Source: an uncultured Candidatus Saccharibacteria bacterium
GTDB lineage: Bacteria > Patescibacteriota > Minisyncoccia > Phycocordibacterales > VMEP01
Reading direction: 5' to 3'
Assembly (NCBI GenBank): GCA_964579635.1
Contig: CAZOFV010000004.1
Coordinates: forward strand, 817-64,816
DNA: 64,000 bases
Below are positions 34,168-37,002 of this stretch, piece by piece. How positions within the stretch are numbered: position 1 is the first letter of the stretch; every line of letters starts with the position of its first letter. Made by a program: the position numbers and the translations under genes. The notes under the pieces are model-generated. The model saw nothing but the letters and a program-made list of their open reading frames with translations. It was not told where the DNA came from and made no database searches.

Positions 34168-37002
34168 TTATTCCAAAACAATACTAAACATTCTTCCTTT
34201 TATATATATTGTTTTCTTAATTTTCTTATCCAAAATCCACGATTTAACACGGGGAGAATTCATAACCGCTTCCTTAATTTGATCCTCTGAAACATTGCTT
34301 AAAAACTCGAGTGTCTCTCTCAATTTTCCGTTAATTTGCACCGCAATTACAATCTTCCCTCCAGTTAATTTAGACTCGTCGTAGGTTGGCCAAACAGCCT
34401 TATTCATTGATTTTTCGTTACCAATTATTTCCCACAACTCTTCGGTAAAATGTGGGGCAAATGGTGACAAAAGAAGCAATAATTCATTAAACGATTTACG
34501 AGAAATATTTTTTTCAGACTCAAGAGTGCTCACCAAAATCATCATTTGGCTTATCGCGGTGTTGAACTTAAATTCCTCAACATCTTCTCCAACCTTTTTT
34601 ATAGTCTGATTTAAAACCATTATCGCATTATCACTTTCGGTATAATTTTCATCACTTGAAATTTTTTCTTGTAACTTCCAAATTCTTTCCAAAAATCTGC
34701 GTGGGCCAATTATCGATTTTGTATCCCATGCGCTAGCTTGACTGAAAGGCCCCATAAACATTTCGTAAATTCGAAGTGTGTCGGCTCCATATAATTCAAC
34801 TATCTCATCAGGATTAACTATATTCCCTAAACGTTTAGACATCTTTACTCCACCACCAGCCAAAATAAGACCCACACTTTCAAGGCGCATGAATGGCTCC
34901 TTTGTTGAAACTATTCCCAAGTCATACAAAAACTTATGCCAGAAGCGGGCATAAATAAGATGCCGTGTCGCATGTTCTGCTCCACCAACATAAACATCAA
35001 CAGGAGACCAATTTTTTTCTTTCTTCTCGTCTATTAAAGCTTTGTCGTTTTTAGGATCGATAAATCTTAAATAATACCAAGATGAACCCGCCCACTGGGG
35101 CATCGTGTTTGTCTCACGCTTAGCGGTTCCTCCACATTTTGGACACTTTGTATTTACCCATTCAGGAATATCGGCAAGTGGTGATTCCCCTGTTCCTGTT
35201 GGTTCATATGCCTTAACATTTGGCAAAACAACCGGCAGATCCTTTTCTGGCACGGGTACAACTCCACAACTTTCACAGTGAATAATTGGAATTGGTTCAC
35301 CCCAATATCTCTGGCGAGAAAAAACCCAATCACGAAGCTTGTATGTGGTTTTAATTTTTCCACTAACAAATTTAGTTATTTTTATTTTTGCCTCTTCGGA
35401 AGACAGGCCACTAAAATCAGATGATTCAGCGAGAATTCCATTTCCTGTATATATTTTATTTTTTACAAACTTTTGAAACACGTATTGATGTAGCGGATCA
35501 CTCACTTTTTTCTCAGCCTCCTCTTCTGTTATCCACTCCACCTTAAACTTACCCTTTTCAGATTCGTCTTGTGATGTTGATTCTTGTTTATTCCCAGTTA
35601 ATTCGAAGTACAAACCAATAGCATCAATATTCCTTGCCACCCCTTTTGAGTGTGCAAAGTAGTGATGATGAATTGTCTCTGAGGTTCCAACTAAACGGAT
35701 TTCACTATAACCTGTCTCTTCTTTTATTTCCCTAATTGCCGTGCTCTCCGCATCTTCCCCTTCTTCAATTCCACCGCCAATAAATAATTGCCCGCCAAGT
35801 TTTTCGCCCCAATTAAGAGATAGGATTTTCCCATTTTTTGGGTCTCTAACTATCGCAACAATACTTTTTCTTTTTTCTTCGTTTTCCTTAATTTCCCCGG
35901 TCACTGGTTCAATGACCACCTTAATCGGTAAATTAAATTTTTTAGCAAATTCATAATCTCTGTCATCGTGTGCTGGCACTGCCATAATTGCCCCGGTGCC
36001 GTAATGAGCTAAAACATAATCTGCAATAAAAACTGGAAGCTTGTCTCCATTTGCTGGATTAATTGCAAAAATTCCCTCTAACTTAACACCCGTCTTTTCT
36101 TTTCCTTCAGAAGTTCGTTCAATCTCTGTTTTTGCTCCTGATTCTTCAATATATTTTTCAACCTCGTCCCAATTTTCAATCTTTGATTTTAAATCTTTAA
36201 TTAATTCGTGTTCTGGAGAAAGCACGGTGTATGTTGCGCCAAAAAGAGTATCTGCGCGCGTCGTAAACACTGTAAATTTTTTATCTATTCCATCTATCTG
36301 AAAATTTATTTCTGAACCTTCGCTTTTACCTATCCAATTTCTTTCCGCTTCTTTAAATGATTCCGGCCAATCTTTCAAGATCTCCAAATCCTCAACCAAC
36401 CTATCTGCGTATTCGGTAATTTTAATAACCCACTGTCTCATTGGTTTTTTTTCTGCTACGGTTCCACATATTTCGCAAGCGTTACCCTCCAAATCCTCGT
36501 TAGACAATCCAGTCTGACAAGTTGGGCACCAAACTATCGGTTGATAGGACTCGTAAGCTAAACCTTTTTCATACATTTTAAGAAACATCCATTGTGTCCA
36601 TTTATAAAACTTCGGATCAGTAGTATCAATTTCTCTTTCCCAATCATAAGAAAAACCAACCGATTTCATTTGCCGTTTAAAATTAGCGACGTTATTATCA
36701 ACCGCCACACGAGGATGAATTTTATGTTTTATTGCAAAACGCTCCGCTGGTAAACCGAAAGCGTCCCATCCTGTTGGATGAAGAACGCGAAAACCGTTCA
36801 TTCTTTTATAACGTGCGTAAATATCACTCGCCGTATAAACCTTAACGTGTCCAGTATGAAGACCCTCTCCTGATGGATATGGGAACATATCCAAAATATA
36901 AGATTTTGGTTTATTTAAATTTTCGTCTGTGGCAAAGGTATTTTCTTCCTCCCATTTTTTTTGCCACTTTTTTTCTATTTTTCGATGGTCGTATTGCTCC
37001 AT
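34168..37002 (-). CDS. leuS: leucyl-tRNA synthetase carrying an inserted Nudix hydrolase domain
   Basis: Bacterial LeuRS hallmarks are present: HIGH (HTGH), CP1 editing domain ([12 protein letters not shown]), KMSKS (VKMSKRL) and C-terminal domains. An extra segment of about 150 aa follows …[23 protein letters not shown] and contains the perfect Nudix box [23 protein letters not shown]. Total 944 aa. Confidence 0.9.
   Translation of the reverse strand: [944 protein letters not shown]

Follow-up and report, generated by a model that had tools for sequence, protein, structure and literature searches.

Why would an aminoacyl-tRNA synthetase (aaRS) carry a complete second hydrolase inside its editing domain? 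This question is raised by leuS, a gene for leucyl-tRNA synthetase (LeuRS) in a 64,000-nucleotide stretch of contig CAZOFV010000004.1 from an uncultured Candidatus Saccharibacteria bacterium, an ultra-small organism of the Patescibacteria/CPR, hereafter the window. An earlier note, made from the letters of this DNA alone, had described a LeuRS of 944 aa with all canonical elements and a complete Nudix hydrolase domain at 35446-35907, where other LeuRS have a short loop. The features on which the analysis rests are given below.

34168..37002, minus: leuS, Nudix-bearing bacterial-type leucyl-tRNA synthetase, 944 aa (open reading frame, TIGR00396 and AlphaFold2 model)
36847..36858, minus: HIGH signature of the synthetic site, HTGH, aa 49-52 (translation)
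35902..36342, minus: CP1 editing domain, N-terminal part, aa 221-367 (Pfam PF13603)
36247-36267, minus: Thr-rich motif FTTRADT in the N-terminal part of CP1 (translation)
35956-35976, minus: PAHDDRD motif in the N-terminal part of CP1 (translation)
35458..35901, minus: inserted Nudix hydrolase domain, aa 368-515 (boundaries from the alignment to T. thermophilus 1H3N)
35707..35775, minus: Nudix box, G410-Y432, with predicted catalytic E425, E428 and E429 (exact GX5EX7REUXEEXGU fit)
35338..35457, minus: CP1 editing domain, C-terminal part, aa 516-555, leading back toward the catalytic core (alignment to T. thermophilus LeuRS from residue 375 on)
34831..34845, minus: KMSKS signature, KMSKR, aa 720-724 (1H3N alignment and translation)
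34297..34617, minus: anticodon-binding domain, aa 796-902 (Pfam PF08264, E 2.7e-19)
37023..37051, minus: sigma-70-like promoter match TTTACA-17-TATGAT, 20 nt upstream of the leuS start (consensus match only)

The Nudix domain nested in LeuRS

The reading frame of leuS was unbroken, and the whole protein scored 1005.5 bits against the NCBIfam model TIGR00396 (leuS_bact; cut-off 548.4). The Pfam domains tRNA-synt_1, tRNA-synt_1_2 (PF13603), NUDIX (PF00293) and Anticodon_1 (PF08264) were detected on the full-length protein, and the AlphaFold2 model (pLDDT 89.6) superposed on the E. coli LeuRS-tRNA complex 4AQ7 with a TMt of 0.85. HTGH, KMSKR, FTTRADT and PAHDDRD were all present, in agreement with the earlier note, and their key residues were invariant: among 92 aligned homologues no variation was observed at H49, G51 and H52, at the editing residues T247, T248, R249, D251, T252, D346, R348 and D349, or at G522 in the C-terminal part of CP1. 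The leucine-specific domain that stands before KMSKS in T. thermophilus was absent from the window protein in the 1H3N alignment. A fully canonical synthetase with intact predicted synthetic and editing sites is strongly supported by the sequence and the model. The promoter match upstream of the gene is not significant alone, because the scan found 8 sites compared with a mean of 11.2 in shuffled sequence.

The match to the editing domain (PF13603, aa 221-376, E 1.3e-62) covered just profile positions 1-151 of 185. In the alignment with 1H3N, aa 1-367 of the window protein corresponded to T. thermophilus residues 1-365 and aa 516-717 to residues 375-581, and therefore about 148 residues (368-515) take the place of a 9-residue Thermus loop. 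The Nudix domain is nested within CP1 rather than appended to the protein. PF00293 matched aa 378-508 of the full-length protein with E 1.7e-13, over profile positions 3-130 of 134, and the insert by itself exceeded the gathering cut-off of 21.1 with 55.7 bits (E 7e-15). Thus both the domain, which the earlier note had placed at what is aa 366-519 of the minus strand product, and the long insertion were borne out. The insert had the alpha/beta/alpha architecture of Nudix enzymes, its box lying on a loop-helix-loop, and its GC content was 0.387, compared with 0.374 for the remaining leuS. The exact fit to GX5EX7REUXEEXGU, which occurs once in the window, was also correctly recognized, although the position given for it (35710-35778) was one codon off.

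Among 100 insert-bearing LeuRS, the box residues G410, E425 and E429 were conserved in all 100, E428 in 99, G411 in 98 and G431 in 96. Near-fixed positions beyond the box were R378 (92), W398 (98), K453 (99), R457 (97), E482 (99) and W490 (100). E428 was replaced by Q or S in a few family members. The conservation of the metal-binding glutamates indicates that the insert is probably catalytic, and the architecture, together with the predicted catalytic competence of the Nudix domain, can be held with high confidence on sequence and model.

Artefactual or recent origins of the insert were considered and rejected. An assembly chimera or pseudogene was dismissed because several sources contributed independent contigs bearing a same-length orthologue (91-95% identity), including a 680-kb scaffold of Parcubacteria bacterium LiPW_30, and because the frame was continuous. 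A recent mobile or phage-derived insertion was rejected on the similar GC of insert and gene, on the ratio of nonsynonymous to synonymous substitution rates (dN/dS), and on a search of viral contigs that gave one relative at 28% identity. Comparison with the LiPW_30 orthologue gave a dN/dS of 0.065 in the Nudix domain, with 0.074 and 0.051 in the LeuRS parts on either side.

Distribution and gene context of the Nudix subfamily

A survey of related LeuRS, which the earlier note had proposed, showed that the insert recurs with its catalytic residues. Nudix was found at the same site in 100 of the 120 best LeuRS homologues (55-95% identity). The closest of the 120 belonged to Parcubacteria group bacterium LiPW_30 (95%), and further named sources were metagenome-assembled genomes (MAGs) of Paceibacterota, Patescibacteria and Minisyncoccia. 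A scan of one genome per species of the Genome Taxonomy Database (GTDB) yielded 315 relatives, and among the best 80 of these the Nudix domain lay inside a LeuRS open reading frame in 78. About half of the best 80 were Patescibacteria, and the remainder were MAGs of reduced gut Bacilli or "Mollicutes". Examples of these MAGs included Candidatus Onthousia, Scybalousia and Faecimonas and Clostridium sp. CAG:417, whose 943-aa LeuRS carried the insert at the window position. Across these lineages, identity to the window protein was 42-59% in the Nudix domain and 40-58% in the N- and C-terminal parts of LeuRS. Since identity, dN/dS and GC are comparable in Nudix and LeuRS, the insert appears to be ancient and constrained as strongly as the surrounding essential enzyme. 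A word-indexed search with the insert alone had returned two fragments, which reflected a limit of sensitivity and not rarity; full-length and exhaustive HMMER searches corrected it. The LeuRS-Nudix fusion is no one-off: public sequence data contain it in hundreds of lineages with reduced genomes. Public records label these proteins just "leucine--tRNA ligase" or "class I tRNA ligase family protein", and such automatic names conceal the predicted second activity.

One further Nudix-bearing leuS (L001, 3689-6502 of a 29-kb contig) was broken into four successive open reading frames, perhaps through frameshift errors of a long-read-style assembly or through decay into a pseudogene.

The exhaustive HMMER search with the insert profile, run against 1.84 billion representative proteins, returned 170 clusters at E <1e-30 and 574 at E <1e-10. 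The 150 best matches were pooled with the 120 LeuRS homologues, the two fragments and the window protein. This set contained 190 Nudix domains at the canonical site; a further 15 preceded the Thr-rich motif, following window aa 208 or 240. Two or three copies of the same subfamily were present in some LeuRS (P0057 and P0058, of 1290-1301 aa, P0061, P0062 and P0123-P0129), the extra copies being placed after aa 208 or 240, upstream of the Thr-rich editing motif. P0130, a candidate for a free tandem "di-Nudix" protein, was rejected as a fragment of a split LeuRS gene.

The same subfamily was also found in a class II synthetase. P0253 (L082, 2906-4837) is a prolyl-tRNA synthetase (ProRS) of 643 aa with Nudix between its anticodon-binding and C-terminal (ProRS-C_1) domains. 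Five clusters of Nudix-bearing ProRS were identified (P0253 and P0273-P0276, 61-100% identity), and the ProRS around them, from Nanoarchaeota and Woesearchaeota (DPANN archaea), were about 485 aa long and lacked the insert. Furthermore, about 29 matches of 154-250 aa appeared to be free-standing, with LeuRS-embedded copies as their closest relatives (about 50-58% identity).

Gene context was analysed around six of the free-standing copies and at three leuS loci lacking the insert. One free-standing copy was located 2 nt upstream of an insert-bearing leuS, with window-like synteny (YchF ... leuS - sigma70_r4/HARE-HTH), and a second 10 nt upstream of a leuS start. The third lay 12 nt downstream of argS and close to an ileS (L089), and the fourth shared a run of same-strand genes with metS, TatD and an HD_3/YfbR-like nucleotidase (L095). 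The fifth (P0163) followed fpg (MutM) by 4 nt, and the sixth was paired with a second Nudix gene. The last gene of the L095 string, 4 nt upstream of an insert-less leuS, encodes a 145-aa Nudix protein that was excluded from the subfamily, as the insert profile gave it only 19 bits. Fusion, duplication and gene neighbourhood together indicate that the Nudix domain is tied to aaRS as a class and not to LeuRS editing specifically. A distinct Nudix subfamily that is repeatedly associated with aaRS in reduced-genome prokaryotes is strongly supported by these sequence and model comparisons.

At one of the insert-less loci, a 164-aa Metallophos/Metallophos_2 phosphoesterase (L091, 2421-2915) ended 2 nt before a 796-aa leuS in window synteny. 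The Metallophos family includes ApaH, and this phosphoesterase may be a non-orthologous counterpart of the Nudix domain. At the two other insert-less leuS loci nothing comparable was present.

Other cargo was observed in related synthetases. Patescibacterial LeuRS of 1115-1155 aa carried alpha/beta-hydrolase (PF06821, PF00561, PF12146) and HAD_2 inserts beside Nudix. These extra hydrolases were placed after window aa 240 in P0039, P0046, P0111 and P0082, after aa 579 in P0042 and after aa 528 in P0088. In P0089 and P0107 (907-911 aa), exactly the site of the window Nudix was occupied by an insert of about 105 unrelated residues, for which no Pfam domain had been precomputed. An IleRS-like class I synthetase of >1184 aa (L089, 5094-8498) contained a histidine-phosphatase domain (His_Phos_1) in its catalytic domain, and the cluster around its gene included argS, two Nudix genes, a dUTPase, a Zeta_toxin-like kinase and a thymidylate kinase.

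Possible substrates and roles of the Nudix domain

No NCBIfam model assigned the insert to a known Nudix subfamily. The models for RppH (PRK00714, 20.7-24.2 bits, cut-offs 116-118), the MutT 8-oxo-dGTPase (TIGR00586, 18.5-23 bits, cut-off 97.9) and the NudB dihydroneopterin-triphosphate diphosphatase (NF006961, 22.4-27.4 bits, cut-off 103) all scored below threshold. The closest functionally characterised structural neighbours included Ap4A-bound RppH, ApnA hydrolases and mRNA-decapping enzymes. ApnA hydrolase activity correlates with a Tyr in the X-loop about 16-18 residues past the box (Dunn 1999 as summarised in PMC5389931). In the 100 LeuRS, position 448 (box +16) was Y in 73 and F in 26, and position 449 (+17) was F in 61 and Y in 21, with the model placing both at a strand end and not in a loop. 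The proline of ADP-ribose hydrolases and the NADH motif, as given by the same rules (PMC5389931), were absent from the conservation of these 100 sequences, and several conserved basic residues were suited to a polyphosphate chain. The aromatic residue at the X-loop position, the basic residues, the structural neighbours and the missing ADP-ribose and NADH signatures are compatible with an Ap(n)N or nucleoside triphosphate (NTP)-like substrate.

Dinucleoside polyphosphates (Np(n)N) arise through attack of ATP, or of another NTP or NDP, on the aaRS-bound adenylate, and the established families that degrade them include the Nudix hydrolases, for example RppH/NudH, NUDT2 and mycobacterial MutT1 (PMC7705103). 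We favour a single bifunctional protein, in which a canonical LeuRS carries an independently folding and apparently competent Nudix pyrophosphohydrolase in a surface loop of CP1. What aaRS of different kinds would offer such a domain in common is ATP, aminoacyl-adenylate, pyrophosphate and AMP, and tRNA, and the module would most likely hydrolyse a nucleoside polyphosphate born of aaRS chemistry itself, with Ap4A, Ap3A and other Np(n)N dinucleotides as leading candidates. Hydrolysis at the source would give back ATP and AMP and so recycle scarce adenine nucleotides, and clearance would curb Np4N signalling and the capping of RNA where an organism has few further housecleaning enzymes. The suggestion of the earlier note that an in-cis Nudix module clears Ap4A-type by-products is therefore plausible, with indirect support from the structural neighbours, the aromatic residue at the X-loop position and the recurrence of the subfamily with several aaRS. 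Nevertheless, the Ap(n)N assignment is tentative and would not surprise us if it proved wrong, and the explanation as a whole, an active Nudix domain acting on aaRS-derived Np(n)N within a bifunctional LeuRS, is put forward as a leading possibility that falls somewhat short of an even chance.

The main rival role would be that of a housekeeping sanitiser of the nucleotide pool, of the MutT or NTP-pyrophosphatase type, joined to essential, constitutively expressed aaRS genes by fusion or proximity only for co-expression and retention in tiny genomes and with no mechanistic coupling to LeuRS. The free-standing copy after fpg is consistent with such a role, as MutM is a partner in the 8-oxoguanine repair system, and so are the second Nudix gene, dUTPase and thymidylate kinase of the L089 cluster and the TatD and HD_3/YfbR-like nucleotidase of the L095 string. 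The unrelated cargo of related LeuRS (alpha/beta-hydrolase, HAD and the 105-aa insert) points in the same direction, since such varied hydrolases suggest permissive loops. However, a sanitiser leaves unexplained why one subfamily entered several LeuRS sites independently, why three copies occur in one LeuRS and why an archaeal class II ProRS carries the insertion, and MutT models reached 18-23 bits against a cut-off of 97.9. We regard this role as rather unlikely, at about one chance in a handful.

Alternatively, the domain might act on RNA ends, either as an RppH-like 5'-pyrophosphohydrolase or Np4-decapping enzyme for aaRS-adenylylated RNAs, or in repair of the tRNA 3'-CCA end, for example after addition of pyrophosphate by a toxin. 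RppH, in RNA-bound and Ap4A-bound form, and the decapping effectors AvrM14 and WY-Nudix were among the nearest structures, and aaRS are able to add AMP to 5'-triphosphate RNA, giving Np4 caps (PMC7705103). The main and alternative LeuRS insertion sites all lie in or around CP1, which would position the domain for repair of the CCA end because CP1 handles that end. This reading is opposed by the ProRS insertion, which is located between the anticodon-binding and C-terminal domains and away from any CCA-handling editing domain, by the free-standing copies, and by RppH models at about 23 bits against cut-offs of 116-118; action on RNA ends is accordingly judged improbable.

A broader proposal takes in the other cargo as well. 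The Nudix, alpha/beta-hydrolase, HAD and histidine-phosphatase inserts of LeuRS and IleRS in the Candidate Phyla Radiation (CPR) might form an unrecognised class of aaRS-embedded hydrolase modules, acting in cis on synthetase products or ligands such as adenylylated by-products, Np4-capped RNA or damaged tRNA CCA ends. They would constitute an added layer of clearance or repair in the translation of ultra-small symbionts (CPR, DPANN and reduced gut Bacilli) and would have spread between domains of life. We offer this as speculation with little chance of holding in full.

The remaining roles are the weakest. Nudix enzymes cut phosphoanhydride (P-O-P) bonds, and an aminoacyl-adenylate is an acyl-phosphate, which makes hydrolysis of Leu-AMP unlikely. 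Proofreading by hydrolysis of Leu-AMP or non-cognate aminoacyl-adenylates, which the earlier note had entertained, draws its sole support from the position within the editing domain and is very improbable, given this chemistry, the intact and invariant canonical post-transfer editing residues and the occurrence of the same subfamily away from any editing domain, in class II ProRS and as free-standing proteins. A non-catalytic Nudix fold serving as a nucleotide sensor, tRNA-binding or protein-docking module would have precedents in inactive, ligand-binding Nudix domains such as CFIm25 with Ap4A (PMC7705103) and could accommodate the Q or S found at E428 in a few members, but metal-binding glutamates conserved at 99-100% and the downstream acidic E482 at 99% in 100 sequences are not expected without catalysis, and we give this idea scarcely any weight.

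Genomic setting and comparison with known systems

Directly downstream of leuS, a gene on the minus strand (33052-34080) encodes a protein with Sigma70_r4 and HARE-HTH domains, a pairing that was kept at every Patescibacteria leuS locus inspected. Divergent from leuS, a 154-aa open reading frame on the plus strand (37098-37562) combines a hydrophobic N-terminal half with an acidic repeat, EEIQEDVEEIQEDVEDIQEDVEDIQEDE. It gave sub-threshold DUF948 and DUF1003 matches only, and a DUF948-like gene occupied the equivalent place in a relative. Further away on the minus strand, a 1122-aa open reading frame (24674-28042) had no Pfam match at E <=1e-3, and a 760-aa Gly_rich_2 protein (21598-23880) coincided with the sole GC-rich stretch of the window (0.476 compared with about 0.37 elsewhere). 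A short AlaRS of 618 aa (19607-21463, minus strand) stops just past its tRNA_SAD domain, and the usual C-terminal part therefore appears to be missing.

As in the LeuRS of T. thermophilus (1H3N/2BYT) and E. coli (4AQ7), the window protein comprises a class I core, a CP1 with Thr-rich motif and conserved Asp, and anticodon-binding and C-terminal domains; its match to 1H3N reached 740 bits. Unlike the Thermus enzyme, it has a 148-residue Nudix domain for the CP1 loop of T. thermophilus residues 366-374, and it lacks the leucine-specific domain. CP1 is regarded by aaRS specialists as a terminal insertion module, and we know of no earlier description of a second enzyme nested in it. A 2026 survey of domain insertions listed the LeuRS editing domain as a strictly inserted module with zero host cases (PMC13114784), contrary to the window LeuRS, in which it is the host.

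The insert shares the box, the fold and basic residues with Nudix Ap(n)A hydrolases and RppH/NudH (E. coli RppH 7SP3, Aquifex 3I7U, lupin 1F3Y/1JKN, T. thermophilus Ndx1 and M. tuberculosis Rv2985), and its aromatic residue at the X-loop position may correspond to theirs. It differs from them in its low identity (16-24%), in reaching no curated subfamily model, and in being nested in an aaRS, whereas those enzymes are free-standing. The MutT/nudix protein 2AZW of Enterococcus faecalis, of 148 aa and 19-21% identity, is likewise stand-alone, and its generic Protein Data Bank name gives no function.

No paper on a LeuRS-Nudix or other aaRS-Nudix fusion was found in the open-access full texts covered, in line with the earlier note, and tRNA synthetases go unmentioned in a large review of the Nudix clan (PMC5389931). 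Both parent families are known and the combination is the new part; since these sequences have also been public for years under generic names, the fusion is not categorically new. It provides a directly testable handle on the long-standing question of whether cells physically couple the destruction of Ap4A or Np4N to its production, and it bears on how housecleaning is organised in minimal-genome organisms. If the Nudix domain acted on RNA or tRNA ends, it would represent a new quality-control activity.

A precedent for a class Ia synthetase bearing an unrelated enzyme domain is IleRS with a GNAT domain (NCBIfam NF040702), which differs in that the domain is an acetyltransferase with other roles according to its authors, sits in another host and is not nested in CP1. 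The logic proposed here is the same as that of the LysRS-Ap4A-NUDT2/ApaH system, in which Ap4A produced by a synthetase is degraded in trans by a distinct Nudix or Metallophos hydrolase (PMC7705103). LysRS and NUDT2 or ApaH are separate proteins, whereas LeuRS-Nudix would unite the two steps in a single polypeptide.

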